Below the pieces are notes generated by a model. It was not told where the DNA came from. It worked only from the letters and a program-made list of their open reading frames with translations, and ran no database searches. Of a stretch of DNA of 64,000 nt, positions 31,991 through 54,646 are shown piece by piece (the first letter of the stretch is position 1; each line of letters starts with the position of its first letter). The translations under genes and the position numbers were made by a program. Source of the stretch: Lytechinus pictus (lineage: Eukaryota). The stretch lies in the NCBI RefSeq assembly GCF_037042905.1, contig NC_087250.1:28212001-28276000 (forward strand), in the 5' to 3' direction.

Positions 31991-32006
31991 ATGTCTAAGA
32001 TTCAAG
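31991..32006 (+). CDS. IDH1: IDH1 coding exon 1 (MSKIQ-G)
   Basis: ATG TCT AAG ATT CAA G|GTGAGT; phase 1 matches exon 2. Confidence 0.85.
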
Positions 32007-35000
32007 GTGAGTGATCACGTCAAAATCAATCGTAAAGTAAGAAATGAAAACCCCCAGGTGATCGACTTAAGTCTGAAGAAGAAGGAACTGGGCCGGGCCG
32101 TAATTTTTAGGCTTTCTCAAAAAGCGAAAGCCATGGCCAATGGCAAAGCCAAAGGCAAAGGCAAGCCGGACGCGGGCTCGACTGTCGTCTGCGAGGAGGC
32201 CTACGCTACGGCTACAACAAAGTCCCGGTGAACTCCGGAGTGCGGGGATCATGAGATCATTAGATGGTGGTTTACTAATGGGTACATTATTGCCGCCGTC
32301 TACAGGAAAATTGAAGGCACAGCGCATGTGAAATTGAATCAAATTCCCACGAATTCCCCCCCCCCCCAAAAAAAAAAAATGTAAAAAATAAGTGTGGACT
32401 GTGGTGAGACTGAGAGTTAGACAGCTGGCAGCCGTCTGTTTCAAGTTTTTAAACATTTTTAAACATCGCTATCGACATCGTGCAGCCACCATTAGGGGAC
32501 TTGCAATGTAAAAAATCCCCCGTCGGGGCTCTTCAATTTTTGTCTTTAATCAATAAAAATTTTGAAAATTAATGCGATCAAAATGCAAATTAATATTCCC
32601 TCTTGGCATTAATTACCAAGGCAAGAAACTGAGAAAAATCAAGTTAAAAGGAACAAAAACAGTGACTTACCTCACTTTCCCGTTTTATCCGATCTTAAGT
32701 ACATTATACATAAATATATGGCCATTGAGTCCCCTGTATGGTGGTGTGACCTTAATTTGCACGTTACCTAATTTTGCGCAGGGTCGAATATCTCAATATC
32801 TAATATTTAGTAATAAATATATTGAAAAACTGATATCACTTACAGAAAAAGCGACTTAGAATTATTAAATATGGATATTTTCTTGAAGGTAAGGCCTCAA
32901 TTTGTGAAAATATTGGTATTAAAACATTGGCAAATTTTATTACCTTTTGCGTCTGCTCCGAGAAAATCCGAACTTCTCGGCAAGCATCAAGAAATCGCCA
33001 GTTTGTAAGCATAGGTCTCCAAATAGGTAAGTCAAATGTGATACCAACCGAATTTATGGCATTTTAACCTCCATCTGATACAATTAACTTACCTTTGTCT
33101 GCTTGATTTATTTTCTAAAGCTTTGCAAAACGTTTGTGCGCAAATTAAGGTCACACTTTTTTATGACACTTTTTCAGCCGAGCGTGCACTAGTAAATCAT
33201 CATGGAATTTTGAGATCGCGACACCGGCGAAACCCTTGGCCTACTTTATAATTCCGTCATGCTAATTTGACTTTGGAATCATGCCTTCCATTTGGTATTA
33301 ATGATTTTGATTAATTTTTTGTGAACTGTGAGAAATTTTAGATTGAAAATCAACTTCATGATAATTTTTAAAATGTGCGCAAATTATGGTCACCCCATCA
33401 TACAGATCGCGCTAGAATTTGGTGAGTGAAGCCAACAGAGTTCAGCTGAACAACCAACATAACAGAGACCGAAGCTTTTGGTCTAGGTGAGAGTGAGACT
33501 ACCACCTGTTTTGTTTTGAAACCGACCACATTGTCCTTGCGCGCGTTGAAATTATTGCAAACGATACGCTTGGGAGAGTAGGCGCAGTATCCATAGAAAC
33601 GGTAAGAATTGATTTTTCAATTCGCGTATATATCGGCGAACAACGAATACGACGGTTTTACATTTGCTCATTTTCACCCTTCTTTTGAAACTGACCGCCT
33701 GCGATACACTAAGTTTGCGGCCGATTCTTGTCGCAGTGGCGAAATATTTTGACTCTTTCAAATCAGTTCTATGTTTTTCATCAAAATTCGCTATTTTCCA
33801 GCATATTTTTCAAACGAAAAGCTGTTAAATTTATTTTGATTTCATGTAGGTCTTTAATGTGTCAGATATAATTTCATACTCGAGTCTAGTGTTACCGGTA
33901 ATTTCCTTTTTATTTAAATTTTTCAGGAGGAACCGTTGTTGAGATGCAAGGAGATGAAATGACAAGGTATTTATCCTCTTCTTTTTCTTCCTTTTGTTAT
34001 TTTCTTTTCCTTTTTACTTCGATCTACAGTTTAAATTTGTAGTTGATTAGCGCCATTTCAATTCCATTCCATTCCTTGTCTTTATTTGGCAATATGTCAT
34101 GATTGACTATTTTTGCCACCCATGCATGAAAAGTAGGGTACGGTAAAAATTTTATTTAGTATTATTATTTTTAATTATTTTTTTATTATTTCTTTCATTT
34201 TCATTCCTTTTTTCTATGACAAAAAAACGACTGACACTTGTCTGTATCACCTATAATGCATGGATTATACTCCTAGGCACATATGACTTCCAAATGATCG
34301 GTTATGTCCTCATGTACGCTTAACCAGTGTAAAGATGCGAAATACACATTGCGATGTGGATTTCTGTACCCTTATATGGAAGACCACTTTTGTTTCTAAT
34401 GGGGCGTTGAAAGAAACTTGCAATCAATTGCAAGTAAATTTTTGGTCCCTAAATCAATCATATATCTTGCAGTCAATTGCATATTAGTGATTGATTGCTA
34501 ATTTGCTCCTTGAAACAAGAAGATTAATCTGATTTGCTGCAGCTAACGTTCATGTATCAGTTGTAAAATTGCAACAGAATATTTGCAATTTCAAGATCGC
34601 AAATATGTTCTTGCAACACCCCCTAAGACTGCTTCATGCGTTCCCATTACACCTTTTACTGGGTTCCACAAAAATTGGTTTAAAAGAAAGCTGATGAGAA
34701 AGGGGTCATAATTTTGGCTGTTAATGTAGCTCACCCATGATAAGTTGGAGCAAAAATATTGAAAGCGAAAGCAAAACCCCACAAGCGCGCATGATATCTA
34801 CATCTTGGGCAGAATTGAACATTTACCCAGCAAGCCATACGCGTACGTTTTGCAGTCTAGCTCAATGAATTGAATCATATTGTGACGTCACCTCCTAAAG
34901 GTGTGCAGCAGTACATTTTGGACTGTACATACATTAATGTTGCTTGTTCAGCCTCCCCATGCCTTAATATCCATTACTATACCTGGGTGAAGAGTGGCAA

Positions 35001-38000
35001 TGATGGGCACCTTCTAATTAATACAATGTAAACCAGAGTATGCAGTGTACATGTTTTAAAGGTTAATTGTGCAATGCACATAATGTACATGTGAACTTGT
35101 GTATGAAGGTCTTCAAGTGTGAAAACAGCTAATGATTTGCCCTCATTCATTGATTAAAGATAGATAGAGACAATAGGCAAACAAACTTGTTGATATTACA
35201 CTTTACAGATAGTCTTAAAGTCACAGACCTTACATGTACTTGTAGCTCCCATTAGGGATAGATATAGGCAAATTGTTGAGGCCTGCGCTTTACAGACTTT
35301 AGAAGCCACAGACCTTAGTTCTCAATACACACATACAGGTATGTAGTAATAATCTTAAGTCACAGACCCCTGGGGGGGGGGTCACTTACATTGACGAGTG
35401 GATACCATGCGCGACCCCAAAACACGTAAAAAGGATGTCTTTTTCAAGATAGGGCACGTTACTTACGTAAAGTACACGAAAAAAGGGTATCTATTTTCGC
35501 TAGGAAGGCTACGTGTTTAGGGTCAAATTTGCGAGGGTATAACAAATTAATACTAAAATGTTTTATAAGGGATGTACTTTTAAGCACTACGTGTTTAGAA
35601 AAGTATGATTTGCGCGAGGTGTGGGAGGTGGGGCTGTACTATAAACCCAATGATTTAGGTAAAGGTGACGTCTGTATGTGACATAACAATTGAAATATCG
35701 CTGTACTTGTTTAGGGTGTAAATTCAGGGAAAACTTGCCAATAGTATTGTTTTGTTTCCAATACTTGTTAAGGGTAGGGTTTCACACGCCAATACTTGTG
35801 AAGGGGTGCATTTTCAGATTATGGAAAATACGTTTGGGTGCTTTTCGAGACCCCATGGTCGCGCATGGTATCCACTCGTCAATGGAAGTGGTCCCTCCGG
35901 GCACAGACCTTATTTCTCAATATAATGTCACAGATCTTAGTTCCATTCATCTGGCATGTTTTCACAAAATTGACATAGTCATTTGGGATTTACATTTGCA
36001 ATGGAAGTGTGAGAGTACTATAATAGGTGTGTACAAATAAAATAGATGTACATGTCCTGTAAAAAAAGGAAGTTATGGAATAATAATAGCCATCAATTTT
36101 AGAGGACAAGTCCACCTCAACAAAAAAAATTATTTGAATAAAAAAAGAAAAATCCAACAAGCATAACACTGAAAATTTCATCATGAATTGGATGTAAAAT
36201 AAGAACATTATGACATTATAAAGTTTTGGTTGATTTCATAAAACATTTATATGCACATCCTGGTGGGCATGCAAATGAGGAAACTGATGACGTGACCCAC
36301 TCACCTTTTGTATTGTTTTATAATATTCATTATTCTAATTATCTCCTCATTGTCAAGTAATTCACCCTTAACATGTAGAAATAGCATTGTTTTGATACTA
36401 TATGGTTCAATTGAGTTGATCCTTAAAGTCAAATCTGTAAAATAATGAAATATTGCATAATTCAAACAATAAAAAAACAAAAGGAGTATTGAGTGAGGGA
36501 CATTATCGACTGTCTCATTTGAATTGTGCCTATCACTGTTTAGTGAAAAATAGCATTCTTTAAAATGTCATAAAATTTTGTTATTTTACATCTGATTTTG
36601 ATGGAATTCTCAGCGTTAACCTAGTTAGGTTTTTCTGTATTCATACTAATCAACATTTTTCTGAGGTGAACTTAACCTTTAAGTGGAAGGTTTCTGATCA
36701 GGGAATATTTTATTCTTTATTTTTGAGTACTTCTTTAAGAACCATGTAAGTAGCGCTGCTAAACATAATACTAGTACTTGTTCCCAGTCTTATTTGGTCA
36801 GTAGTTGTTTACATTTGTTCTTTATCAATATGACATTGTGCTCTTCAGGGTTAAATGATAAGATAATGATTGAAGGTGACCTTCATGGATTCAGACTGGG
36901 AAATGAAAGACAAAGAGAGATAATTCATTCTTGAAATAAAGTTGGTAAAGTAATTGCTTGAGAGAGAGAGACGGACAGACCAACAGACTTTCACAGACAG
37001 ACATAATTTAAAGGGAGAGAAATGGTTGGGTCGGGGTGGTGTGAAAAATTTAACTTTTAAATAGTTTTGTGGGGGAAATATAACTTTTAGATCGTTTTGT
37101 GGGAAATATAACTTTAAGATAGTTTTGTATGTGTGTGGGGGGGATTTAACCTTTAGATAGTTTTGTGGGGGAAATATAACTTTTAGATAGTTTTGTGTGG
37201 TTAACTTTTAGATAGTTTTGTGGGGAAAATATAAGTTTTAGATAGTATTGTGGGGAAATAAAACTTTTAGATAGTTTTCTGGGGAAAATAAAACTTTTGG
37301 ATAGTTTTGTGGAGGAATATATAATTTTAGATAGTTTGATGGGAGAAATATAACTTTTAGATAGTTTTGTGGGGATATATCTTTTAGATAGTTTTGTGGG
37401 GGGGGGGGAATTATGGAACTTTTAGATAGTTTTGTGGGGGAAAATATTTTAGATAATTTTGTGGGGGAAAATACAACTTTGGTGGGGAAAATGTAACTCT
37501 TAGATAGTTTTGTGGGGAAAATATAACTTTTGGATAGTTTGTGGGGGAAAGTATAACTTTTAGATAGTTTTGTAGGGAAAAATTTAGATAGTAAGGGTCA
37601 GTTAATAGGCAATCAGAACAAAGCTCATATTTCTTTTCATTGTTCCAATGTTCTCAAATTTAGAGCTGTGATAGTTTGTAATGTATTGATCCATCAGACT
37701 ACGTTACATGTACATGTAACAGTCTCATGAGGGGCCATTTTGTCTCCTTAATGATTTTTTTCTACAGCATTCCATAGGAGGCCATCAAAATCAAACTTTT
37801 ATTTCCCTTCATTCAGAGTTATTCATTCAGAGATCTTTGGATAATACATCTGTTTGTCTCTAATATGTGTCTTTCTTTGTCTAATTAAAATACAGGATTA
37901 TATGGGAGACGATTAAAACCAAGCTGATATTTCCGTTCATTGATCTTAACATTCAGAGTTATGATCTTAGTATTCAGAACAGAGATGCAACAAATGACCA

Positions 38001-41000
38001 AGGTGAGTGACCTTTGTAAAAAACACACATACCCATCTATCACACATTACAAGATAAAGAAGAGCTTTTTATAAACCTACCTATCGATTGCACATTACAA
38101 GATAAAACAGACCTTCTTTCAGAAAACCTTCCTATCGATTGCACATTACAAGATCAAACAGACCTTCTTTCACAAAACATACCTATCAATTGCACATTAC
38201 AAGATAAAACAGACCTTCTTTCAGGAAACCTTCCTATCAATTGCTCATTACAAGATAAAACAGAGCTTCTTTCAGAAAACCTTTATATCGATTGCACATT
38301 AGAAGATCAAACAGAGCTTCTTTCACAAAACCTTCATATCATCTGCACATTACAAGATCAAACAGACCTTCTTTCACAAAACCTTTTTATCAATCGCACA
38401 TTACAAGATCAAACAGACCTTCTTTCACAAAACCTTCATATCAATCGCACATTCCAAGATCAAACAGACCTTCTTTTTATACAAATTACCTATCAATTGC
38501 ACATTACAAGATCAAACAGACCTTCTTTCCGAAAACCTTTATATCAATTGCACATTAGAAGATCAAACAGAGCTTCTTTTACAACCTACCTATCAATCGC
38601 ACATTACAAGATCAAACAGACCTTCTTTCACAAAGCGTTCTTATCGATTGCACATTATAAGATCAAACCTCTAGGTATCTGTTAGTCTTATTTTCATTTG
38701 AAATACTACAATGATTTGACTTGCGAGCTAATTGGGATATAAACTTCACTAATGCAAGGTCTGTGCAATGGATTGATTTACCAGCTCCCAGTCTGCTTTG
38801 TGAATTGGCAAGTATGCAGAACAAAAAAAAAAAATGCCTTGGTCAATCCCTGTACAGATTCTCATACACTGCAAGAAAACTTGCAAGCAATTTTCTCGCG
38901 ATGACAGAAAAACCGCAGGATGACTTTCGATGTTTCGTGTGGTTTTCATTGCGGCGTTTCACGCAGTTTTATTCTATTTCAGAAAAAAACGCAGAAAACT
39001 GTACAATGCTTTTTTGCAAAGTGAGAATAGCCCAATGACTGCAAGTTTGTTGATGGTGACTATGAATAATTTTGCTTTTACAAATTTGAATAGCATTTTT
39101 GGTCATAAGAAAAAAGCTCTCAAAGTAAAGTATAGATCTATGTAAAAATATGCTATTCAAAAGACTGCATAACAGTCTTTCAAAAATGAGGAGCAAATTG
39201 CGATGCGATACCAGGAAAACTACTAGTATTCCCTGAAGCATGACCAATGCTTGTAGACTTACTGTGCCAGACACATCTAGCATTACAACAACAAAAAAAC
39301 AGAAGCTTTCAGCTGATAGGCTACTACATCACCTGCACATTCATTGACCTACCAGCAAACACAAAATTATAAATCTCTTTAACAGTTTTTATTATTGATC
39401 ACCTCTACAATCACCAGATACATGTAGCAGATGGTAAATGGAAAAACATCAGGGCTTTTTTTTTTAATCAGTAGCAAATCATATCAATTTTCGTTGTAAC
39501 TTGTGATATATTTCTTGCAATTTGTTAATTTATCTTGATCTTAATTGATTGATCATTGCCAATAAATTTGTCCTCATTTTGAAAGCTGTGAATCATGATG
39601 TGTTAAAAAGAATTTTGTAACCCAGTACATGAGCAGTGTTTTACTCTAGAAAATACCTGCAAGAAAACACTGGAACTTAGAATACATGTGATAAGTGATT
39701 GCATTGATCATTGATTAATATCCCATACATGTACAAACAATCAATCACATGATTTAAGCTTTGAAGGTTCAAGTGGGCTACAAACATGTACTGTATTGTG
39801 CATGTGTGCAGCTGATTCCCAAACTTACCAGCAAGTTTATTTCTTTGATCTGTTGGTTTCACTGAGAGTTACATGTAAACCAAACCACTGTGGTCCAGTG
39901 GTTAGAGCATTGTACTCATTATCGCAAGGTTGTGAGTTCAAATCCCCACTCTGCCATTGTTTCCACTTTCAAATTGATAAAAAGGCCCAAGAGTAGGCCT
40001 ATACATGTATCTGTCGTCTATATAAAGGTCAGCCACTATAAACCTACATGTAGACATACAATTTTTCCTAGGTAATTGGTTATATACCAGCTTGGTGTTT
40101 ACCAGCGAAATGCTATCCCGCCGAATCCTACGGGAGTTTCAATAAACTGAAACTGATTGACTGATGAATTTTTCTGGGATGCAACATGTAGGTATATGAT
40201 TCAGAAAAAAAGTGAACCAAGTCCAAAATAACATGCAGTATCTTGTGTTGTTCCTGAATAAAAATTGAATAAGTTTACAATAAAACATGCTCAAACAATG
40301 ATATCAATTGCAAATTGGTAACTTTTTATTTATGATTATTTGTAATACAAGTTCATTTTAAATTGTATATATCCAGATTTACCTTTTTAAAAATGTCAAT
40401 CATTGCCAATTTGAGGAGTAAAAGTAGATTATGAATAAAACCTGTTTAAAAAAAACACTTGTGCACCTCTAATACAGTAGTTGGTTTATACGAATTTGGA
40501 ATTCTGAAATATTGCTTTTCAACTGATATATATGGTATTTCTTTTGTTTTATTCTACATGTAGTGACCGTTGACTGTGCTGAAGCTATCAAGAAATGTAA
40601 TGTAGGCATTAAGTGTGCTACCATTACACCAGATGAAAAGAGAGTTGAAGGTAAGTCTACTTAAATTAATTCAGAAATCTGGTGATTTTGACTCCTGTTG
40701 CCCGTAACACAAAGCTACATTGTAAGTGATCATAGAACAATTCTCTACGATTGATTCCTTTGACTACAATGTACAATCAATCGTGAAAATCAAGCGTACG
40801 ATTAATCGCTAACCTTTGTGTTATGGGACCAAGATCAAAGGATTGTTTATTCAGGGTCCTGTAACACGGTTTTTAGCGATTAATCGTACACTTGATTTTC
40901 ACGATTGATTGTGTATTGTAGTCAATGGAATCAATCGTAGAAAAGTGTTTTTACGATCATTGCTTAGCTTTGTGTTATGGGCCCCTGATCATGTTGGAAT

Positions 41001-44000
41001 CACCATTGTGTTGGGGACAGATCTGAGACTTCTAACTTGATGGTATGAATGTGTAATACCCAAGATATAATTAAAGAAAATCAATCAAGGAAATAATCAA
41101 TCCACAATCAAATCAATCACTTCAACTCAGCATCAGTTAAACTTTCCCCAAAATTCACATTCAATCTGACAGGATGATATGGTTCAGTGACTATATGAAC
41201 AAGTCTGGTATATGGACCTCCCTACCTTGTGAATTTTTTAATACAAAGTTTGCTTGGAAAATATTGACCAATGTATTTCAAATATTGCAGGACAATGTGA
41301 TTTTCTGACTGAATTGTCACTGCAGTGTACAGTATGTATTTTGATGCACAGCCTTTATAAAATCAATCAAAATCTGAAGGAATAAAAAAATAGGTCTTAA
41401 AACTAGACTTTGCCCATTTTTACTGCATTTTACCTCCTGTTCCACAATTATGGAAATGAAAATAATTACTTAAAAAACATTTTTTTGTCTCTTTTTAAGA
41501 GTGTTATTGTATTTTTATTTTCATGGATGATGATGGGAATCATTGTTATCATTTGTACGATCGTTATTAATAATGATAATAAATAAATAAATAAATAAAA
41601 TAAAATAAATCAAAATAGCAATAAAAAGGGAATAATAATGATGATCATCATCATAGAGAGTTGTACATTATATAGTGCATGTCACATATAATTATAACTT
41701 CTCTATGTATTATTATTATTTACATGTACCTCACCTGGGTTGAATGCAGCACAGTGTGGATGAATTTCTTGCTGAAGGAAACAAAGCCATGGTTCGGATT
41801 TTAACCCGCAACCCATTATTATTAAATTGCCCAAAAGCTACCATGGTTAATTTGCACAATGGGAGAGAAACAAAGATTCCCCTGAATGTTTGGTGAACAA
41901 TGATTTCCAGTATTATTATCTAGTATTGTGCTATTATTGTTAAATTTAAATTCATAAATTTATATGTATATACATTTTCTTTGAATATAGAATTCAACCT
42001 AAAGAAGATGTGGAAATCCCCAAATGGAACAATTAGAAACATTCTTGGTGGTACGGTCTTCAGGGAAGCTATCATCTGCAAAAACATTCCAAGACTGGTA
42101 GTTACATGGAATAAACCTATTGTTATTGGGCGTCATGCACATGCCGATCAGGTGAGGATGGATGGATGGAAGGTTGGTTGGTTGGTTGGTTGGTTGGTTG
42201 GTTGGATGGATGGATGGATGGATGGATGGATGGATGGATGGATGGATGGATGGATGGATGGATGGATGGATGGATGGATGGATGGATGGATGGATGGATG
42301 GATGGAGATGGATGGATGGATGGATGGATGGATGGATGGATGGATGGATGGATGGATGGATGGATGGATGGATGGATGGATGGATGGATGGATGGATGGA
42401 TGGATGGATGGACAGATGGATGGATGGATGTACGGACAGATGGATGGATGGATGTATGGACAGATGGATGGATTGATGGGTGGATGGATGGATGGGTAGA
42501 TTGGTAGGTGGGTGGATGGATGGATCGGTGGGTGGATAGATTGATAGAGCAATGGATAGATGGATGGATGGATGAATGAGTGAATCGATAGATGAATGGA
42601 TGGACCAATGGGCAGATACTCTCCATCTTATTCTTAAAGACATCTTCTCTTCTCTTCCTTTCTAACAGTACAAAGCAACAGACTTTGTAGTTCCTGGCAA
42701 GGGAAAGATTGAACTAACCTACACACCAGAAGATGGAAGTGAACCCAAGTCATTCACTGTTCATAACTTTGTAGATGGAGGTGGCGTTGCCATGGGAATG
42801 TTCAATACTGACGTATCTATTCAGAACTTTGCTCATTGTTGTTTCCGCTATGCTCTAGATCGGGGCTATCCACTTTACCTCAGGTTAGTTGGCATTGAAT
42901 GTTAAATGGTAGCCTGTTTTATTATATTGAGCTATATTATAATCAGTGGTAATCTATTCATGTAAAAGGGTTAAAATCAGGCTCCCATCAAATATCATAA
43001 AATGGGTTTCCTTTGAATATCATATAAACGGGTTAACATTGAATTCAAAATTACTGGTTTACCATTGTATACATTGCATACAGGTTACCATTGAATAAGA
43101 TAGGGTTACCATGTGATTAACTGGGTTGCCATCCTTTGAATATGATATAATGAACAGGTTATCATCAATATATTGTAGATTTGATACCATTGAATACTGT
43201 ATTTTAAACAGTTTTCATTGACTAATTACATAACCAGGTTACAATTGAATGTGAAATATTAATCATGATAATAAACAAAATACAATTGAATATACAAGAC
43301 AAATACAATATAGGTTACCACTGAATATAATAGGTTGCCATTGAATATTTAATCCTGTAATTATTTATTGCTATGATATTTCATCCCTCCTCAGCACAAA
43401 GAATACGATTTTGAAACGTTACGATGGTCGGTTTAAGGACATATTCCAGGAGATCTACGAGACGACATACAGAAGTGACTATGAGGCGAAGAATCTCTGG
43501 TACGAGCACAGATTGATTGATGATATGGTAGCCTTCGCAATGAAGAATGAAGGAGGATTCGTCTGGGCTTGCAAGAATTATGATGGAGATGTACAGAGCG
43601 ATTCTGTAGCACAAGGTAATAATAATGACTATTATGATGGTAATGTAGAGAGTGATTCTGTAGGACAGGGTAATAATAATGACTATTATGATGGTAATGT
43701 AGAGAGAGTGATTCTGTAGGACAGGGTAATAATAATGACTATTATGATGGTAATGTAGAGAGAGTGATTCTGTAGGACAGGGTAATAATAATGACTATTA
43801 TGATGGTAATGTAGAGAGTGATTCTTTAGGACAGGGTAATAATAATGACTATTATGATGGTAATGTAGAGAGAGTGATTCTCTAGGACAGGGTAATAATA
43901 ATGACTATTATGATGGTAATGTAGAGAGTGATTCTGTAGGACAGGGTAATAATAATGACTATTATGATGGTAATGTAGAGAGTGATTCTGTAGGACAAGG

Positions 44001-47000
44001 TAATAATAATGACTATTATGATGGTAATGTAGAGAGAGTGATTCTGTAGGACAGGGTAATAATAATGACTATTATGATGGTAATGTACAAAGTGATTCTG
44101 TAGGACAAGGTAATAATAATGACTATTATGATGGTAATGTAGAGAGTGATTCTGTAGGACAGGGTAATAATAATGACTATTATGATGGTAATGTAGAGAG
44201 TGATTCTGTAGGACAAGGTAATAATAATGACTATTATGATGGTAATGTAGAGAGAGTGATTCTGTAGGACAGGGTAATAATAATGACTATTATGATGGTA
44301 ATGTACAAAGTGATTCTGTAGGACAAGGTAATAATAATGACTATTATGATGGTAATGTAGAGAGTGATTCTGTAGGACAGGGTAATAATAATGACTATTA
44401 TGATGGTAATGTAGAGAGTGATTCTGTAGGACAAGGTAATAATAATGACTATTATGATGGTAATGTAGAGAGAGTGATTCTGTAGGACAGGGTAATAATA
44501 ATGACTATTATGATGGTAATGTACAAAGTGATTCTGTAGGACAAGGTAATAATAATGACTATTATGATGGTAATGTAGAGAGTGATTCTGTAGGACAGGG
44601 TAATAATAATGACTATTATGATGGTAATGTAGAGAGTGATTCTGTAGGACAGGGTAATAATAATGACTATTATGATGGTAATGTAGAGAGAGTGATTCTG
44701 TAGGACAGGGTAATAATAATGACTATTATGATGGTAATGTACAAAGTGATTCTGTAGGACAAGGTAATAATAATGACTATTATGATGGTAATGTAGAGAG
44801 TGATTCTGTAGGACAGGGTAATAATAATGACTATTATGATGGTAATGTAGAGAGTGATTCTGTAGGACAGGGTAATAATAATGACTATTATGATGGTAAT
44901 GTAGAGAGAGTGATTCTGTAGGACAGGGTAATAATAATGACTATTATGATGGTAATGTACAAAGTGATTCTGTAGGACAAGGTAATAATAATGACTATTA
45001 TGATGGTAATGTAGAGAGTGATTCTGTAGGACAGGGTAATAATAATGACTATTATGATGGTAATGTAGAGAGTGATTCTGTAGGACAAGGTAATAATAAT
45101 GACTATTATGATGGTAATGTAGAGAGAGTGATTCTGTAGGACAGGGTAATAATAATGACTATTATGATGGTAATGTACAAAGTGATTCTGTAGGACAAGG
45201 TAATAATAATGACTATTATGATGGTAATGTAGAGAGTGATTCTGTAGGACAGGGTAATAATAATGACTATTATGATGGTAATGTAGAGAGAGTGATTCTG
45301 TAGGACAGGGTAATAATAATGACTATTATGATGGTAATGTACAAAGTGATTCTGTAGGACAAGGTAATAATAATGACTATTATGATGGTAATGTAGAGAG
45401 TGATTCTGTAGGACAGGGTAATAATAATGACTATTATGATGGTAATGTAGAGAGTGATTCTGTAGGACAAGGTAATAATAATGACTATTATGATGGTAAT
45501 GTAGAGAGAGTGATTCTGTAGGACAGGGTAATAATAATGACTATTATGATGGTAATGTACAAAGTGATTCTGTAGGACAAGGTAATAATAATGACTATTA
45601 TGATGGTAATGTAGAGAGTGATTCTGTAGGACAGGGTAATAATAATGACTATTATGATGGTAATGTAGAGAGTGATTCTGTAGGACAAGGTAATAATAAT
45701 GACTATTATGATGGTAATGTAGAGAGAGTGATTCTGTAGGACAGGGTAATAATAATGACTATTATGATGGTAATGTACAAAGTGATTCTGTAGGACAAGG
45801 TAATAATAATGACTATTATGATGGTAATGTAGAGAGTGATTCTGTAGGACAGGGTAATAATAATGACTATTATGATGGTAATGTAGAGAGTGATTCTGTA
45901 GGACAGGGTAATAATAATGACTATTATGATGGTAATGTAGAGAGAGTGATTCTGTAGGACAGGGTAATAATAATGACTATTATGATGGTAATGTACAAAG
46001 TGATTCTGTAGGACAAGGTAATAATAATGACTATTATGATGGTAATGTAGAGAGTGATTCTGTAGGACAGGGTAATAATAATGACTATTATGATGGTAAT
46101 GTAGAGAGTGATTCTGTAGGACAAGGTAATAATAATGACTATTATGATGGTAATGTAGAGAGAGTGATTCTGTAGGACAGGGTAATAATAATGACTATTA
46201 TGATGGTAATGTACAAAGTGATTCTGTAGGACAAGGTAATAATAATGACTATTATGATGGTAATGTAGAGAGTGATTCTGTAGGACAGGGTAATAATAAT
46301 GACTATTATGATGGTAATGTAGAGAGAGTGATTCTGTAGGACAAGGTAATAATAATGACTATTATGATGGTGATGTAGAGAGTGATTCTGTAGGACAGGG
46401 TAATAATAATGACTATTATGATGGTGATGTAGAGAGTGATTCTGTAGGACAGGGTAATAATAATGACTATTATGATGGTGATGTAGAGAGTGATTCTGTA
46501 GGACAGGGTAATAATAATGACTATTATGATGGTAATGTACAAAGTGATTCTGTAGCACAAGGTAATAATAATGACTATTATGATGGTAATGTAGAGAGTG
46601 ATTCTGTAGGACAGGGTAATAATAATGACTATTATGATGGTAATGTAGAGAGAGTGATTCTGTAGGACAGGGTAATAATAATGACTATTATGATGGTAAT
46701 GTACAAAGTGATTCTGTAGGACAAGGTAATAATAATGACTATTATGATGGTAATGTAGAGAGTGATTCTGTAGGACAGGGTAATAATATAGATATATGGA
46801 CTGCTTTGAGAGGCATGGTTGTTTCTAGAGGCTCAAGGGGACTGCAACGCGACTATGCCCGAGGGCTTTGCCCGAGGGCATGGTCTGGCCGGTGCAGTAC
46901 CCGCGAGCCGAAAGAAACAACCATGTCTCGAAAATAAAGGCAGTCCATATATATTTTATGAACCGAATTAAACGTTAGATCTAGTCTAGGTATAACTTAG

Positions 47001-50000
47001 GCTAGATCGTATCCAAATTAAGCCTAAAACTAAAGCCCTAGCCCAGGCTAACGTTAGGCCCAAATTATTTTTTAGGCCCTAACAGTTAGGCCTATATTTA
47101 TTTTAGGAACCAAATTAGGGTCTGAAACAGATCTAGATTCTACAGTAGATCTGACTGAGCCTTATTCTTAATCTCCAATAGAGTCTAACTTTAGATCTAA
47201 CGTTAGATCCAACTTAGGCCTAACTTACGTCAGATCTGACTTAGATTAAATGGAACATTTAATACGTCTAACTTAGTTAGTTAGATCTAGGCTATCATCT
47301 AGATCTAGAGGGTTACATCTAGATCTAGTTCTACTCTAGTCTTACTTCTGAGCTAACGTAGGCCTAAGTTAGATCATCACTTTTATTAGAGTTTTGTTTA
47401 GACCTTACGCCCCGACCCAGCTTAACGTTATCGTTTGTCATAATGGTACCTGGCTACAACGTTAGAAAGTGCAATGATGACTCAGCCGACTCACCTTTTG
47501 CGAGCATGCATTTGTTTTTTAATGAACAGTCAACTGCAACAATACTTGATGATTGATACATCTGTTATGTCCTTAATAAATTCGTCTTCTTTTCAATAAT
47601 GCCGTATTTTTTAACAGGAGTAAACAAGCAAAACTCAAAGATCGGCATCGTTCCATCGATATGTCATATCCGTTGCGCGCACTTGCGCAATAAGCGCGTA
47701 AATGCGCGAATTGTCTAAAACTTTCGATCAAATCGCGCGGATATTTATGGTATCCGCAATTACCGCAGGAAGCAACATTTTGCACGCAATCAAATGGAGA
47801 TCTCAGCCAAATTTTGCCATGCCCGTCGTTAAGGGGCGGGTCAGGGGGCAACGGGCAGAAATCTTGTTAACTATGCCCGTTGCCCTTGGTAACCACCTTA
47901 GTTTGTTGTTTTGCAGGCATGGTTGATTACATGACCTCAATTTCGACCAATCAGAGGAACGGATTATTCGACATTCTTAAAGAGAGGTTTATAATAATGA
48001 CTATTATGATGGTAATGTAGAGAGTGATTCTGTAGGACAGGGTAATAATAATGACTATTATGATGGTAATGTAGAGAGTGATTCTGTAGGACAGGGTAAT
48101 AATAATGACTATTATGATGGTAATGTACAAAGTGATTCTGTAGGACAAGGTAATAATAATGACTATTATGATGGTGATGTACAGAGTGATTCTGTAGGAC
48201 AGGGTAATAATAATGACTATTATGATGGTGATGTACAGAGTGATTCTGTAGGACAGGGTAATAATAATGACTATTATGATGGTGATGTAGAGAGTGATTC
48301 TGTAGGACAGGGTAATAATAATGACTATTATGATGGTGATGTACAGAGTGATTCTGTAGGACAGGGTAATAATAATGACTATTATGATGGTAATGTACAG
48401 AGTGATTCTGTAGGACAGGGTAATAATAATGACTATTATGATGGTGATGTAGAGAGTGATTCTGTAGGACAGGGTAATAATAATGACTATTATGATGGTG
48501 ATATACAGAGTGATTCTGTAGGACAAGGTAATAATAATGACTATTATGATGGTAATGTACAGAGTGATTCTGTAGGACAGGGTAATAATAATGACTATTA
48601 TGATGGTGATGTACAGAGTGATTCTGTAGGACAGGGTAATAATAATGACTATTATGATGGTAATGTACAAAGTGATTCTGTAGGACAGGGTAATAATAAT
48701 GACTATTATGATGGTGATGTACAGAGTGATTCTGTAGGACAAGGTAATAATAATGACTATTATGATGGTAATGTACAGAGTGATTCTGTAGGACAAGGTA
48801 ATAATAATGACTATTATGATGGTGATGTACAGAGTGATTCTGTAGGACAGGGTAATAATAATGACTATTATGATGGTAATGTAGAGAGTGATTCTGTAGG
48901 ACAGGGTAATAATAATGACTATTATGATGGTAATGTAGAGAGTGATTCTGTAGGACAGGGTAATAATAATGACTATTATGATGGTAATGTAGAGAGTGAT
49001 TCTGTAGGACAGGGTAATAATAATGACTATTATGATGGTAATGTAGAGAGTGATTCTGTAGGACAGGGTAATAATAATGACTATTATGATGGTAATGTAG
49101 AGAGTGATTCTGTAGGACAGGGTAATAATAATGACTATTATGATGGTGATGTACAGAGTGATTCTGTAGGACAGGGTAATAATAATGACTATTATGATGG
49201 TAATGTACAGAGTGATTCTGTAGGACAAGGTAATAATAATGACTAGTATGATGATGATGTACAGAGTGATTCTGTAGGACAGGGTAATAATAATGACTAT
49301 TATGATGGTGATATGGTTCATAACCACTAGTACATGCATGGTAGGTTGGTAACTTTGCCCTTATGGCAACTGCCGTGGTAACAGTGTTCAACAGCCATTC
49401 AGGTTTCAATGGTAGGTATTAACTGCATTTATGTTAAAATTAATTGTCAATCCTTATGAAAATTGACCATGGTCACATTAGAATTCTCAACCAATTTCTG
49501 ATAGAAAAAGTGAAGAACGAGTGCTTTTGAGGCTGCTGTCTTTGACATGATATAATCTTTATTTTGATATTGTTTATGGACCCCTGGGTACGATGATACC
49601 AAGGCCCGTAACACAAAGCTTAGCAATGTTCATAAAACACTTTTCTACGATTGATTGCATTGACTACAATGTACAATCAATCATGAAAATCAAGAGTATG
49701 ATCAATCGCTAACCTTTGTGGAATGGGACCCAGATCTGTCCTGATGGAGGAAGTGAAGAACGATTGCTTTGGAGGCTTCTTTCTTTGACATGGTAAATTC
49801 TTTATTTTGATATTGAGTTATACATGTAGATCTACATGTATTAATGAGTCTCTGCTAGTACTCTCTCATTCCCGAGTAATCCATCTTTGACATGATAGAT
49901 TAATATATTTATTTTGATATTAGGTTATGGATCCCTGGGTATGATGACGTCAGTTCTGATCTGTCCCGATGGAAGGACGATTGAGTCCGAGGCTGCTCAT

Positions 50001-52260
50001 GGAACGGTGACAAGACATTATCGTATGCATCAACAAGGCAAAGAAACGTCTACAAACTCAGTTGGTAAGTACTACTGAGATTCACAAAATGCAAGCTTAA
50101 TACACTGTCATATTCTTATAGGCCACCGCACACCTTTTGGAATGAAGCGTCTAATCATTTGATGCAAATGTGTAGATGTGGATCCTCTCCTTGCGCAACG
50201 TTCCAAATCAACAGTGGGCTTACGACCGAGATTCAAAATTGCAAGTGTAAGACACTGTCATATTCCTTATACCTCGGTCACATTTGCTCTACGTCGGCTG
50301 TACGGCGAGTTGAAAACAGCCAATATGTAACTGGAAAAAAATATGTTAAAACGGCTGTCTTAGACTCGCCGTACGGCCGCCGTGGAGCAAATGTGACCAA
50401 GGTAAAAAGGCCACCGCACACCTTGCAATTGATCTGCAATCCAATTTTGGAATGAAGCGTCTTATAATTTGATGCAAATAAGTAGATGTGGATCCTCTTA
50501 TTGCACAACGTTGCGAATCATCAGTGGGCTTACTACTGAGATTCAAACATGCAAGCGTAAGACACTGTCATATTCCTAAAGGCTTCACATCTTACAATTG
50601 ATCTGTAATCCGATTTTGGAATGAAGCGTCTTATCATTTGATGCAAATAAGTAGATATATTGCACAACGTTGCGAATCATCATATGAATTCATATTTATA
50701 TTGAAATCTAAGACTGTACTATCCTCTTATTAGAATAAAATCAATTTCAGTATCTAATTATTATGACATCATAGCAATCGTACCATAGGCTACGAATTGA
50801 AGGGAAATTGGCGTTTACTCCATAGAAGTATTAGTACTATCAAATTGAATCCAAAATAGAAAGATTATATTCATACATATTTTCAGAAATAAGCAACATG
50901 CGATTAGATCTGAAATCATTTGTAATCCAGTTGTAAAATGTATGGTGTTCCTTAGGGGTTCATAATAATGTGTGTCTGGATAGTTGATCATCACCTACCT
51001 TACAAACTATGATATGGAAATATATCGTCCCCAATCAATACATTGAAGACAAAAACAAAATTAATATCTTTTTTTTCTGCTAAGACTGAAACGAGAATGG
51101 AGATGGGGAAAAATGATAATTATGGATTACTTTTTTCCCCATTTGCAAAAATTGTTTTCTCACAAGGTGACAGACTATTGTCTGATCATATTTATGTAAA
51201 AAAAAAGTTGAAATTTGGCAAATTTGCGACATATAGCATTCCCATGACAACAACAATGAAATCATTATGAAGTCACATTTATGAATCATTGTCATGTCAT
51301 GAGGTTCCACAATTTTAAGATGAATTCTGAGACTTGAATTATGAAATACATTTATTGTTATTAAAGTAATGATAAATTTATAAACTATATAGATTTTCTG
51401 AGCATTACTTTCATTACCCAATGCTGTTTGACTCATATTATAGCATCCATATTTGCCTGGACCAGGGGTCTTTCACATCGTGCTAAGCTGGACAGTAATG
51501 AAGCCCTTGCTAAGTTCTCTGCTGCTTTAGAAGAAGCATGCATCGAGACTATAGAGGGCGGTATAATGACCAAAGATCTTGCAATCTGCATCAAAGGAAT
51601 GGCAAAGTAAGTAATGTTTCATTTTGAGTATAGTGAGTTTGCTTAATTGGTCTATGCTAACTTTCATAGAATTTTTGCTTGGTTTAACTATGGAGAGCCA
51701 ATTGGGGCACGAATTCCTTACAATACACATTGACTTGACACCCTAACTTTTCATAATTGTCCGGGAATGATAACTGAAGTATTTTTCTTCATTATGAAAG
51801 CAAAAGGAAACATAATAGGAAACATACTTTTTGCTTTGTCTCATTCCACATGGTCTAATACTAGTTTGTCTTCATCCAATTTGTATTACACTGTTTAGTC
51901 TAATTGCCATTTAGCCCTTTGTATAATTTCCAGTTCGGCAAAATCCATCTTGTCCAATATGCACTTGTTGTTTATGATTTGATAAATTGTTTATGAAACA
52001 AGTTTTTCATTTGACAACATCCAAAATGATAATAGATAAAGTGAAAATTAGACTCTTTGGCCTGTAGTCTAAAGTCGGGTTTGAATTAAACTCTGACTAT
52101 GTCAACACGTTTGAATTCCTGAAGCCATCTCTTCTATGTGATTTTATCTTTTGTTTTTCTCTCTTTCATCTATTCTTACAGTGTTGTCCGTTCTGACTAT
52201 GTCAACACGTTTGAATTCATTGATAAAGTTGCTGAAGCTGTCGCTGCAAAGTGTAAGTGA
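31991..52260 (+). CDS. IDH1: NADP-dependent isocitrate dehydrogenase, cytosolic type; join(31991-32006,33927-33966,37896-38002,40564-40650,41991-42151,42669-42883,43395-43615,49924-50064,51444-51606,52182-52260), 1230 nt, 409 aa
   Basis: Spliced translation [152 protein letters not shown]. All 9 introns are GT-AG with matching phases. Confidence 0.96.
32734..33405. mobile_element. MITE in IDH1 intron 1
   Basis: TIR CTGTATGGTGGTGTGACCTTAATTTGCAC/GTGCGCAAATTATGGTCACCCCATCATACAG. Confidence 0.75.
33927..33966 (+). CDS. IDH1: IDH1 exon 2 ([13 protein letters not shown])
   Basis: TTTCAG| acceptor, AG|GTATTT donor. Confidence 0.95.
34401..34623. mobile_element. Short MITE
   Basis: Ends GGGGCGTTGAAAGAA/TTCTTGCAACACCCC. 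Confidence 0.65.
35368..35901. mobile_element. MITE with CCC..GGG ends
   Basis: Inner TIR CATTGACGAGTGGATACCATGCGCGACC/GGTCGCGCATGGTATCCACTCGTCAATG; 7-8-bp TSD CACAGAC(C). Confidence 0.85.
36103..36678. mobile_element. Kolobok-like MITE (related fragment at ~9908-10385)
   Basis: TTAG|AGGACAAGTCCACCTCA..TGAGGTGAACTTAACCT|TTAA. Confidence 0.7.
37045..37592. repeat. ~31-33-bp minisatellite (ATAACTTTTAGATAGTTTTGTGGGGAAAT)
   Basis: About 17 degenerate units. Confidence 0.92.
37896..38002 (+). CDS. IDH1: IDH1 exon 3
   Basis: [40 protein letters not shown]| and G|GTGAGT. Confidence 0.96.
38030..38668. repeat. ~50-51-bp minisatellite directly after the exon-3 donor
   Basis: Unit ATTGCACATTACAAGATCAAACAGACCTTCTTTCACAAAACCTTCCTATCA, about 12 copies. 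Confidence 0.93.
39885..40165 (+). mobile_element. tRNA-derived SINE
   Basis: A box TGGTCCAGTGG (39891), B box GAGTTCAAATCCC (~39934), simple-repeat tail AATAAACTGAAACTGA. Confidence 0.7.
40564..40650 (+). CDS. IDH1: IDH1 exon 4
   Basis: [34 protein letters not shown]| and G|GTAAGT. Confidence 0.96.
40695..40987. mobile_element. Two ~135-bp MITEs in opposite orientation (third copy at 49600-49733)
   Basis: GCCCGTAACACAAAG..CTTTGTGTTATGGG ends. Copy 2 (40852-40987) is the reverse complement of copy 1 (40695-40833). Confidence 0.85.
41991..42151 (+). CDS. IDH1: IDH1 exon 5 (contains the R100/R109/R132-equivalent residues)
   Basis: [60 protein letters not shown]| and CAG|GTGAGG. Confidence 0.97.
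42156..42605. repeat. (GGAT)n/(GGTT)n microsatellite filling intron 5
   Basis: Read directly; begins 4 nt after the donor. Confidence 0.97.
42669..42883 (+). CDS. IDH1: IDH1 exon 6
   Basis: [47 protein letters not shown]| and AG|GTTAGT. Confidence 0.97.
43395..43615 (+). CDS. IDH1: IDH1 exon 7
   Basis: [42 protein letters not shown]| and CAAG|GTAATA. Confidence 0.97.
43577..46788 (+). repeat. 54/56-bp tandem array derived from the exon-7/intron-7 junction, left block (~58 units)
   Basis: Unit GTAATAATAATGACTATTATGATGGTAATGTAGAGAGTGATTCTGTAGGACAGG compared with the exon end TATGATGGAGATGTACAGAGCGATTCTGTAGCACAAG|GTAATAATAATGACTAT. Confidence 0.97.
46789..47990. mobile_element. 1.2-kb non-TIR insertion with a 160-bp terminal hairpin (Crypton-like non-autonomous element?)
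   Basis: Flanked by an ATAATA direct repeat (46783-46788, 47991-47996). Hairpin at 46792-46952, no TIR, CCAATCAG near the other end. The family assignment is tentative. Confidence 0.75.
47991..49313 (+). repeat. 54-bp exon-junction array, right block (~24 units)
   Basis: Same unit, without the 56-bp variant; many units carry GGTGATGTACAGAGT, closer to the exon sequence. Confidence 0.97.
49924..50064 (+). CDS. IDH1: IDH1 exon 8
   Basis: [53 protein letters not shown]| and G|GTAAGT. Confidence 0.97.
50045..50690. repeat. ~150-170-bp degenerate tandem repeat beginning inside exon 8, with a MITE at 50270-50404
   Basis: AACGT..CAGT.GG..TACTACTGAGATTC..CACTGTCATATTC recurs at ~50045, 50197, 50507 and (partial) 50666. 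Confidence 0.8.
51444..51606 (+). CDS. IDH1: IDH1 exon 9
   Basis: [60 protein letters not shown]| and AA|GTAAGT. Confidence 0.97.
52182..52260 (+). CDS. IDH1: IDH1 exon 10 ([26 protein letters not shown])
   Basis: Long pyrimidine tract then TTACAG|; TGA at 52258-52260. Confidence 0.95.
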
Positions 52261-52281
52261 CTGGAAAGTAGCAAACTGTGA
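52258..52281 (+). other. IDH1: Candidate stop-codon readthrough extension encoding PTS1 (X-L-E-S-S-K-L-stop)
   Basis: TGA CTG GAA AGT AGC AAA CTG TGA. Confidence 0.75.
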
Positions 52282-52301
52282 ATCCTTAACTCCATAAATT
52301 A

Positions 52302-52307
52302 AATAAA
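52302..52307 (+). terminator. Candidate polyadenylation signal AATAAA (another at 52762-52767)
   Basis: Canonical hexamer 3' of both stops, with T-rich sequence downstream. The region is AT-rich, so the hit is not specific. Confidence 0.35.
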
Positions 52308-52870
52308 TTAAAGTCTTATTCTATGTCTTAATCGTATAAAGTCAAATGTATTTTTTTTTTCAGGCGGGAAATTCAGTAACAAATTTATGTCGGATCTTTT
52401 GTTTCAGCTGCTTGAAAGTTTATTTAATATGAAAATCATTTCATGAATGTAGTATTGATCAGTGAATATTGTCTGCATAGTGACACAAGGAAATCAATTC
52501 ATAGCCCTGTCTTACACATAGTGTTTTGATTGGTCCAATCAATCACAATTATGGAAAGCCAACAAATACCGAATGCATATGACTATTGAAAGTGTTTTCT
52601 AAATACAGTGTCAGCATCATTGTTGATAAGTCAATGTACATGTCTGTTTCCAGAGGGATGTTGTTTACATTTAATTTTAAAATTGATTTCCATAGTTGAG
52701 ACTGACTGGATCAGTTACAATCTTGTGTGAAACAAGCAATGATGAGATCAATTTAAGATATAATAAAAGAAAATGGATTTAGGATATTACGTTCTAATGG
52801 CTTCACAGAGCAGTTATATAAAAATGAGTTATTAAAATGTTGATTGACATAAAACGTCTTCCACCAAATC

Positions 52871-53292
52871 CAGAGGGGTCTTTTCATAAAGCTGTTTGAA
52901 AGTTATAAATGATTTTACTGATCACCCCTTCTTGAAGTAAATGATATACCCCAAATTTGTATTGGTATTGCTTTTATAGCTCCATTTAAATGATCCAATC
53001 ACCATGGCCCAGTCTTGAGTTATGAGAGTAGCTCCTTAGACAAGGTTACCAGTCACTTATAAAGTCATTTGTAACTAAGGATTAGTTTTATGAAACACCC
53101 ACCTGGGGACGTTTCATAAAGCTGTCTGTAAGTTAAGAGTGAATTTAAGAATGGCTGGAGATCCTTTCTTACACACCAATAAATCACCAGTCAGTGAACA
53201 TTTAATGGTGAATATGATATACCACAAAAAAGGATAACCAGTCGTTTTTATAGTCACACATACCTAAAGAATAGCTTTATGAAACATCCACC
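52871..53292. mobile_element. Two adjacent short MITEs of the TTTCATAAAGCTG family
   Basis: Ends TTTCATAAAGCTG..TTTATGAAACA; same family as ~27590-27758. Confidence 0.7.
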
Positions 53293-53464
53293 TTTAGGCT
53301 TAAATAGAATGAAAAGCCTTAAAGCATATACAAAAAAAAATCCACCTTGTGCTGTATTTTGATAATGAAAGACACAGTATTTACTTGTATATGATATTCA
53401 AACATCAATATTTGTTATGAATGTTATGAGCAGTTTAAATGTCATTTTATGATAAATCAACATT

Positions 53465-53764
53465 TGTTTGTTTGATAGGGGGTTGAATGAAAGGAAGATT
53501 AAGTTAGTGATAGCAGTGTTCATACATTTGTTTGATAGGGGGTTGAATGAAAGGAAGATTAAGTTAGTGATAGCAGTGTTCATACATTTGTTTGATAGCG
53601 GGTTGAATGAAAGGAAGATTAAGTTGGTGATAGCAGTGTTCATACATTTGTTTGATAGGGGGTTGAATGAAAGGAAGATTAAGTTAGTGATAGCAGTGTT
53701 CATACATTTGTTTGATAGCGGGTTGAATGAAAGGAAGATTAAGTTGGTGATAGCAGTGTTCATA
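53465..53764. repeat. 60-bp tandem repeat, 5 copies
   Basis: Near-identical consecutive 60-nt lines (TTTGATAGGGGGTTGAATGAAAGGAAGATTAAG..). Confidence 0.97.
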
Positions 53765-54646
53765 TAATGGCTTTGATTGATTAGGATTTACAGATTTTAT
53801 TAAAACTCTTAGGGTTCTATGTTCATTGTTTTTGTTCGGTTTTAATATTTTTGATTAATTTAACTTAGTTTTTACTGTGTGTGATTCTGATAGGTTTTGA
53901 CTTGTTATTCTAATTTTGTTGCTTTGCTTAATATTTTTGTTTCTTTCTAATAGGTGATCAATTGTATGTTTTGTGTAACCTTGATATAAGACTTGCATCA
54001 ATAACCAGTGTAGTTGTATATACATAGACACATTCCAGTCATGGCCTTTAAAAAAAAAAACACGATATGAATGATTCCCAAGATTTTGATAGATGTATGA
54101 ATTTAAAATTATCTGAGTTTTGTCTTAAACCTCGCAATATTGAATTGAAGATAGAATTTGATATGAGATGACTATTTTTTATGTATGATTCTGATGCGAT
54201 GACCTTGGTTCGTTGACTGGAAAGAAAATTTGGACTAAGAAAAATTAAGAGAAATATTGAAAGTTTGTAAAAAAAATCTATTTAAAAATGAGAGATTTGT
54301 GAATTGCCAAAGTTTCCATCTCTTATGCAAGCAGCTTTCCATTTATATTTGTGTAGCAAACGTGCAGCTTACAGGCAGGGGCAAAGCTGTGAAATTTCGT
54401 GCAAATAATTTATCATCAATTCACCATGCAATTATAGTTGTCATCATTCTTAAAAGCAACGCTGTAGAAATACATATTTAGAACATTGTTTAGAGCTGTG
54501 TATTTTTTCTACCCAATTTCTATTAAATTATTGATTGCACTTGAATATCAATTGTGATTTTTTTATGGGGAAGAGAAAGAGAGAGGGAGGGAGAGAAAGA
54601 GAGAGGGAGGGAGAGAAAGAGAGAGGGAGGGGGAGAAAGAGAGAGT

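Follow-up and report, generated by a model that had tools for sequence, protein, structure and literature searches.

The cytosolic NADP-dependent isocitrate dehydrogenase gene of the sea urchin Lytechinus pictus, IDH1, carries a peroxisome-type tail hidden in frame behind its annotated stop codon. The gene lies in a stretch of 64,000 nucleotides (here called the window; G000:C6:28212001-28276000 within an 812-Mb assembly), and by its sequence it is the orthologue of IDH1. The encoded protein ends AAKCK; a TGA follows, then the six codons CTG GAA AGT AGC AAA CTG and a second TGA, which read LESSKL-stop and end in SKL, a candidate peroxisomal targeting signal type 1 (PTS1). The arrangement has a UGA stop, CU directly after it, and a PTS1 tripeptide with an immediate stop, the features of a known readthrough class; what it lacks is the enhancing A in third position. 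We judge it probable, at about 0.72, that this tail provides L. pictus IDH1 with a functional, readthrough-gated PTS1, a reading drawn from sequence comparison. The hidden SKL behind a TGA-CT stop is itself real and is located in the mature mRNA. Translation of the window and the 100% match of the annotated protein (P0002) upheld the original prediction in its description of the sequence, its coordinates and its arithmetic of 409 and 416 amino acids, and also in its claim that standard annotation misses the tail, the annotated protein ending at 409 amino acids.

Ten coding exons, separated by nine introns, were located on the plus strand at 31991-52260 of the window using tblastn and regular-expression (regex) searches (Table 1). 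P0002, named 'isocitrate dehydrogenase [NADP] cytoplasmic-like [Lytechinus pictus]' and 409 aa in length, is 100% identical over the window exons (tblastn), and the lengths of 409 aa for normal termination and 416 aa with readthrough are therefore correct. Its precomputed Pfam assignment is PF00180, and its N-terminus, MSKIQGG, is without presequence. A near-identical second IDH1 copy, probably a haplotig, lies on contig C34 and has the same sequence as window positions 52135-52350; as a haplotype comparison for the tail it was uninformative, being identical across that interval. The TGA is not an assembly error, because the C34 copy is identical, the RNA reads are unanimous and a related species also has TGA. 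A whole-genome search for an IDH1-type gene with a constitutive tag found none, the matches being confined to the C6 gene, its C34 copy and an IDH2-like paralogue on C3. The paralogue, a mitochondrial form, is a distinct gene (51-76% identity per exon); its reading frame closes ...DKALK-TAA-AGA, and the 29 codons that follow contain no PTS1-like end.

As a chance baseline, each of the 7797 stop triplets on the two strands of the window was treated as a pseudo-stop. An in-frame stretch ending SKL was found behind 4 of them (0.05%) and one ending [SAC][KRH][LM] behind 20 (0.26%), and TGA-CT made up 202 (2.6%). The combination of TGA-CT with SKL occurred at the IDH1 stop alone. Jointly, the frequencies of TGA-CT (2.6%) and of a consensus tail (0.26%) amount to about 7 in 100,000 per gene, which, given a gene with known peroxisomal orthologues, suggests more than chance. 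No relative annotated to include the tail, its stop replaced by a sense codon, was found, as no echinoderm protein in the protein searches exceeds 409 aa; a search with P0002 residues 368-409 returned no further echinoid sequences.

Conservation of TGA-CT, of the frame and of the terminal tripeptide, accompanied by synonymous changes, had been put forward as a check of the original prediction, and it was borne out in one related species (organism B). Spliced IDH1 transcripts from this species, present in Logan contigs of runs X11 and X20, share the 51606>52182 junction. Compared with the window, they show 5 differences in 164 nt of exon 9, and in the coding part of the last exon one synonymous change (52245) together with K409M (52256 A>T) in X20 only. 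TGA-CTG-GAA is unchanged. The remainder of the tail differs at 52269 (T>C, AGT>AGC), 52272 (C>T, AGC>AGT), 52278 (G>A, CTG>CTA, X11 only) and 52280 (G>A, TGA>TAA). All of these listed changes are silent (4/4 in X11, 3/3 in X20), and LESSKL-stop is kept with no indel. Downstream, the 35 nt of 52282-52316 carry 6 listed substitutions (approximately 17%), and X20 has indels at 52322, 52338, 52350 and 52357, the first of which lies 41 nt past the extension. By exact enumeration, four random substitutions in 21 nt would keep LESSKL-stop with a probability of 0.0011, 0.0029 or 0.0067 for transition weights of 1, 2 and 4, respectively, and three random substitutions would all be silent with a probability of 0.006-0.026. 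Because a translated readthrough tail is predicted to accumulate only silent changes, these results support the readthrough reading. Residue 409 is K, N or Q among echinoids and Met in X20; the last residue before the stop thus appears free to vary, with the position of the stop (409 aa) fixed.

Raw reads of a stranded RNA run with the same species label (X21) were aligned to 51400-52900. Seven reads join 51606>52182 (GT..AG), and since the first mate is on the minus strand in all seven, the IDH1 RNA is plus-strand. Nine to ten reads extend across 52245-52287, every one identical to the window. Depth was 10.2 at 52216-66, 7.3 at 52267-317 and 3.4 at 52318-68, and then 1-6 up to 52900; it roughly halves beyond the cluster of poly(A) signals at 52298-52312, and some transcripts reach at least 52900. 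Poly(A) signals were found only downstream of 52298. Given this position and the read depth over the extension, the tail lies inside even the shortest form of the 3' untranslated region (UTR). The original prediction depended on the mRNA not being spliced or cleaved before 52281; neither event was seen, the reads being continuous over stop and extension. A total of 1692 reads aligned, 1646 of them only partly, and most derive from interspersed repeats in the intron and flank, not from IDH1. Short interspersed repeats at 51655-51860, 52063-52113, 52522-52572 and 52675-52725 are covered by RNA 10-30 times as deeply as the IDH1 exons, with reads on both strands. Two contigs of a seawater metatranscriptome (X9) fall on the stretch, one of which (207 nt, 52381-52587) is identical to the window; neither spans the stop.

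Several points weigh against a functional tail or lessen the force of the evidence for it. The CTG behind the stop does not supply the A by which readthrough in HeLa cells is raised further, and the rate may accordingly be low; a literature search for the efficiency of UGA CUG yielded no usable figures. Glu at tail position -5 is not ideal for PEX5 binding. Four silent changes exceed the approximately one expected under constraint (a hand estimate from the UTR transition rate), so that the likelihood ratio of constraint to neutrality is nearer 20-30 than the raw 1/0.003. The differences listed are 11 of 12 for X11 and 21 of 24 for X20, which leaves room for an unlisted change within the extension, and X11 and X20 are not independent lineages but represent the one related species compared. 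That the comparison is limited to a single relative also favours coincidence, in which SKL-stop is neutral 3' UTR, in frame by accident, and luck explains why the four differences are silent. Short PTS1-like tails do arise by chance, as behind 20 of the 7797 pseudo-stops, and substitutions are as dense in the 21 nt of the extension (4) as in the following 35 nt of UTR (6 listed), as would be seen without constraint. We nevertheless consider coincidence unlikely: IDH1 was an a priori candidate, the same enzyme being so arranged in insects and a mollusc; the chance of TGA-CT and a consensus tail together is about 7 in 100,000 per gene; all four changes are silent (P = 0.001-0.007); the extension is without indels, though indels begin 41 nt on; and MDH1 of the same genome also has a hidden tag, SRL (see below).

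Coding-type conservation speaks for translation of the tail and is silent on the route, which could instead be A-to-I editing of UGA to UGG, selenocysteine insertion or an alternative splice. A perfect donor-like GTAAGT at 52253-58 takes in the last codon and reaches into the stop (AAG TGT AAG TGA), but no joint from 52252 is among those listed (12 joints lie beyond the listing), and such a splice would remove, not expose, the tail. Editing of a small share of transcripts would escape the 9-10 RNA reads over the stop; at a listing threshold of 10%, however, these show no alternative letter at 52258-60. A selenoprotein is not indicated, as no selenocysteine insertion sequence (SECIS) family was found by Rfam at E<=1 in 52100-54500 on either strand. 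The only match at that threshold was a weak mir-77-like hairpin at 53066-53144 (+; 23.1 bits against a gathering score of 83, E = 0.047), which is probably due to chance. Nor was a stable RNA structure found 3' of the stop: 52258-52340 has a minimum free energy of -3.4 kcal/mol (z = +1.5), and an equal or better fold is reached by 189 of 200 shuffles. With no SECIS and no downstream structure, readthrough, if any, would act through the short context alone, and the conserved TGA-CT is a known readthrough context; translation of the tail by one of the other routes is, in our estimation, highly unlikely. There is also a very slight chance that the stop is read through and the tail selected for a non-peroxisomal purpose, such as stability or a degron. 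Glu at -5, which could weaken PEX5 binding, speaks for this, but what the tails of the different lineages have in common is limited to a first-position Leu (from CTN) and a PTS1-type tripeptide at the end (SKL, SRL, ARL, SKI or SHL). Vertebrate and fungal orthologues, moreover, have a constitutive PTS1, and fungal NADP-dependent isocitrate dehydrogenase (NADP-IDH) has been shown to be peroxisomal, according to the sections of PMC4207609 used here.

A readthrough-gated PTS1 on urchin IDH1 would belong to a class already described. In the sections of Stiebler et al. (2014; PMC4207609) used here, UGA-CU(A) is a short readthrough motif in which UGA CU is the core and the next A only enhancing, peroxisomal isoforms of MDH1 and LDHB are shown in human cells, and Fig. 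S3 predicts hidden tags on NADP-IDH of Drosophila (TGA CTA N10-SHL), Apis (N9-SKY), Tribolium (N3-ARL) and Aplysia (N16-SKL), along with constitutive ends in human (AKL), chicken (PKL) and Ustilago (GKL). The insect and mollusc cases have in common with the urchin the enzyme, UGA-CU, a short Leu-led tail, a PTS1 with its stop, and an annotated protein without PTS1. They differ in that the urchin is an echinoderm, and thus a deuterostome, with CTG rather than CTA and a tail of 6 codons (6 in Tribolium, 13 in Drosophila, 19 in Aplysia). They are also sequence predictions, to which the urchin adds a silent-substitution test and RNA coverage. No echinoderm appears in the lists of that paper, and 'Strongylocentrotus' is absent from its supplements, within the same sections; we found no report of readthrough-derived peroxisomal IDH1 in echinoderms in the literature. 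The L. pictus gene thus appears to be the first echinoderm, and the first deuterostome-invertebrate, case found of an arrangement already predicted for NADP-IDH.

The ends of IDH1 in other animals bear on the direction of evolution. Two protein searches gave 138 IDH1-like proteins of at least 380 aa, mostly from echinoderms, molluscs and arthropods, and just 3 of these invertebrate-like proteins have a constitutive [SAC][KRH][LMI] end. The echinoderm proteins, each of 409 aa, end AAKCK (L. pictus), AAKCN (S. purpuratus), TAKCQ (Diadema), RSQLQ (Apostichopus) and RAKLK (Antedon). From metagenome contigs scanned with P0002, 80 loci were retained; the C-terminus can be read in 76, and in 68 the in-frame extension is complete. 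Most of the loci are bacterial IDH, accompanied by a few animal transcripts with no taxon assigned. The extension has a PTS1-type end ([SAC][KRH][LMI]) in 5 of the 68 loci, L009 (TGACTG..ISKI), L010 (TGACTT..KSRL), L058 (TGACTA LARL) and L059/L060 (TGACTT..HSKL), and in 0 of the other 63. Each tagged locus has TGA-CT, and all five are among the loci closest to the urchin protein; TGA-CT occurs in 7 of the 76 readable loci, the two untagged ones being bacterial-like. In a phylogenetic tree, made as a quick version only, L059 falls beside a sequence from a cockroach, L010 groups among molluscs, and L009 and L058 have no phylum placement; two rows, L063 and L016, are mis-extracted open reading frames (ORFs) with artefactual long branches.

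These data do not support the proposal, made with the original prediction, that the urchin lineage replaced a constitutive PTS1 with a gated one, and the direction was probably the reverse. As only 3 of 138 invertebrate-like proteins are constitutively tagged, and the hidden form is found in three insects, Aplysia and five metagenomic animal transcripts, it is more likely that the hidden form is widespread and older and that the vertebrate AKL is the derived state. UGA-CUG had further been taken for a variant of the motif; the published core is UGA CU, and the metagenome loci have CTG, CTT and CTA, so UGA-CUG is no new variant.

Cytoplasmic malate dehydrogenase (MDH1) of L. pictus is encoded outside the window, at G000:C7:7512958-7513212 (L090:1501-1755), where the protein ends ..AFQFIQQ-TGA-CCG. 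Behind this stop is an in-frame extension of 13 codons, PTARGMSTDKSRL-TGA, which ends ..DKSRL and so places a hidden SRL behind UGA-C, not UGA-CU. Among PDB entries, cytoplasmic MDH matches best, the alignment covering residues 264-332 of 334, and in sequence terms the urchin tail is the counterpart of mammalian MDH1x. Hidden tags are therefore present in 2 of 2 a priori candidates of one genome, IDH1 and MDH1.

The mammalian isoforms MDH1x and LDHBx (UGA-CUA) fall in the same class as urchin IDH1, having a leaky short UGA-CU, a hidden PTS1 and an NAD(P)-linked dehydrogenase divided between cytosol and peroxisome. They are, however, other enzymes and have been shown experimentally, whereas the urchin case is known from sequence. 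Schueren 2014 and Hofhuis 2016 reportedly deal with these mammalian readthrough isoforms. Vertebrate IDH1 (human AKL, chicken PKL) is the orthologue, with the same presumed dual role in cytosol and peroxisome, but carries its PTS1 on every molecule; urchin IDH1 would carry it only on readthrough products. A further parallel comes from yeast, where, in the portion of Yanagida et al. (2015; PMC4526572) used here, pre-duplication IDP2 has a cryptic 3' UTR PTS1 reached via a +1 frameshift, and such tails are argued to become hard-wired later. Yeast IDP2 and urchin IDH1 belong to the same enzyme family, and in both the PTS1 is hidden in the 3' UTR and exposed by a translational 'error'; in yeast this is a +1 frameshift, whereas the urchin tail is in the zero frame behind UGA-CU.

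Table 1. Positions of the IDH1 coding exons, stop codons, candidate targeting tail and poly(A) signals in the window.
Feature	Position	Strand	Evidence and remarks
Coding exon 1 (ATG TCT AAG ATT CAA G)	31991..32006	+	MSKIQ and first base of Gly6; donor GTGAGT next; regex match to P0002 N-terminus MSKIQG
Coding exon 2	33924..33967	+	Residues 6-19, tblastn 100%; start approximate, behind acceptor TTTTCAG; 33911-33925 non-coding
Coding exon 3	37894..38001	+	Residues 19-54, 100%; boundaries are tblastn match limits
Coding exon 4	40563..40649	+	Residues 55-83, tblastn 100%
Coding exon 5	41990..42150	+	Residues 84 to about 137, tblastn; 3' boundary approximate
Coding exon 6	42666..42881	+	Residues 137-208, tblastn 100%
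Coding exon 7	43390..43617	+	Residues 208-283, tblastn 100%
Coding exon 8	49923..50063	+	Residues 283 to about 329, tblastn; 3' boundary approximate
Coding exon 9 (penultimate)	51444..51606	+	Donor GTAAGT at 51607; joint 51606>52182 in RNA reads and in contigs of the relative
Last exon, coding to Lys409	52182..52257 (stop to 52260)	+	Acceptor AG at 52180-81
First (annotated) stop TGA with CTG (UGA-CU context)	52258..52263	+	Unchanged in haplotig, RNA reads and related species
In-frame extension L-E-S-S-K-L, SKL a candidate PTS1	52261..52278	+	Translation of window
Second stop TGA (TAA in relative)	52279..52281	+	Puts SKL at extreme C-terminus
Overlapping poly(A)-signal hexamers ATTAAA, AATAAA, ATTAAA	52298..52312	+	17-31 nt past second stop; regex

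Other features of the gene and its surroundings were also recorded. The intron after exon 7 (43618-49922) is packed with tandem repeats of approximately 54 nt, whose unit reads NNNDYYDG[ND]V[QE]SDSVGQG. The unit derives from the 3' end of exon 7, and dozens of copies flank a central flip; repeat copy number differs between the two gene copies, the intron measuring approximately 6.3 kb on C6 and approximately 4.3 kb on C34. The intron after exon 5 (42115-42504) holds a microsatellite-like array from the exon 5 donor, (GWMD)n in the frame of the exon. In the last intron, the start of the last exon recurs at 52090-52135 as a degraded, incomplete duplicate (..CTGACTATGTCAACACGTTTGAATTC.., corresponding to SDYVNTFEF), approximately 95 nt upstream of the true exon and without an acceptor. 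The C34 version of this duplicate is 13 bases longer (..ATTGATAAAGTAA), and the duplicate adjoins a fragment of an RNA-abundant interspersed repeat. Upstream of IDH1, on the minus strand at 23193-25220, the ORF list contains a 676-aa open frame with reverse-transcriptase-like motifs, suggestive of a retroelement of the long interspersed nuclear element type.

If the tail functions as we propose, most ribosomes would terminate at the UGA at 52258-60 and yield the 409-aa cytosolic enzyme, and a minority would decode it with a near-cognate tRNA, UGA-CU being a weak terminator for which RNA structure is unnecessary. Ribosomes that read through would add six codons and stop at 52279-81, giving a 416-aa product ending ...K-x-LESSKL. 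The terminal SKL would be bound by PEX5 as a PTS1, and a small fixed share of NADP-IDH would thereby enter peroxisomes and supply NADPH there. We infer from the sequence that readthrough is above background and that import is driven by the tail.

The case would extend a predicted class, dehydrogenases that send a small fixed share to peroxisomes by leaky termination, to a deuterostome invertebrate, and it adds evidence from sequence evolution that a six-codon tail is read as protein. Hidden tags on both IDH1 and MDH1 of one genome, together with the lack of a constitutive tag on nearly all invertebrate IDH1, argue that readthrough targeting may be an old and general route of peroxisomal NAD(P)H supply and that annotation may systematically miss such isoforms. 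Gating of the PTS1 by readthrough, on cytosolic NADP-IDH and also on MDH1, could even be the ancestral bilaterian state, which arthropods, molluscs and echinoderms would have retained for over 500 million years, with the AKL-type signal of vertebrates a later hard-wiring of the readthrough tail. We offer this tentatively, as somewhat short of an even chance; it is compatible with all of the data, which come from scattered taxa, and the hard-wiring in vertebrates, if true, would be an animal parallel to the passage from IDP2 to IDP3 in yeast. L. pictus is an experimental model, which makes the prediction directly testable, and if the ancestral reading is true, sea urchins would offer a deuterostome model for the dosage logic of 'a few percent to the peroxisome' in embryos.

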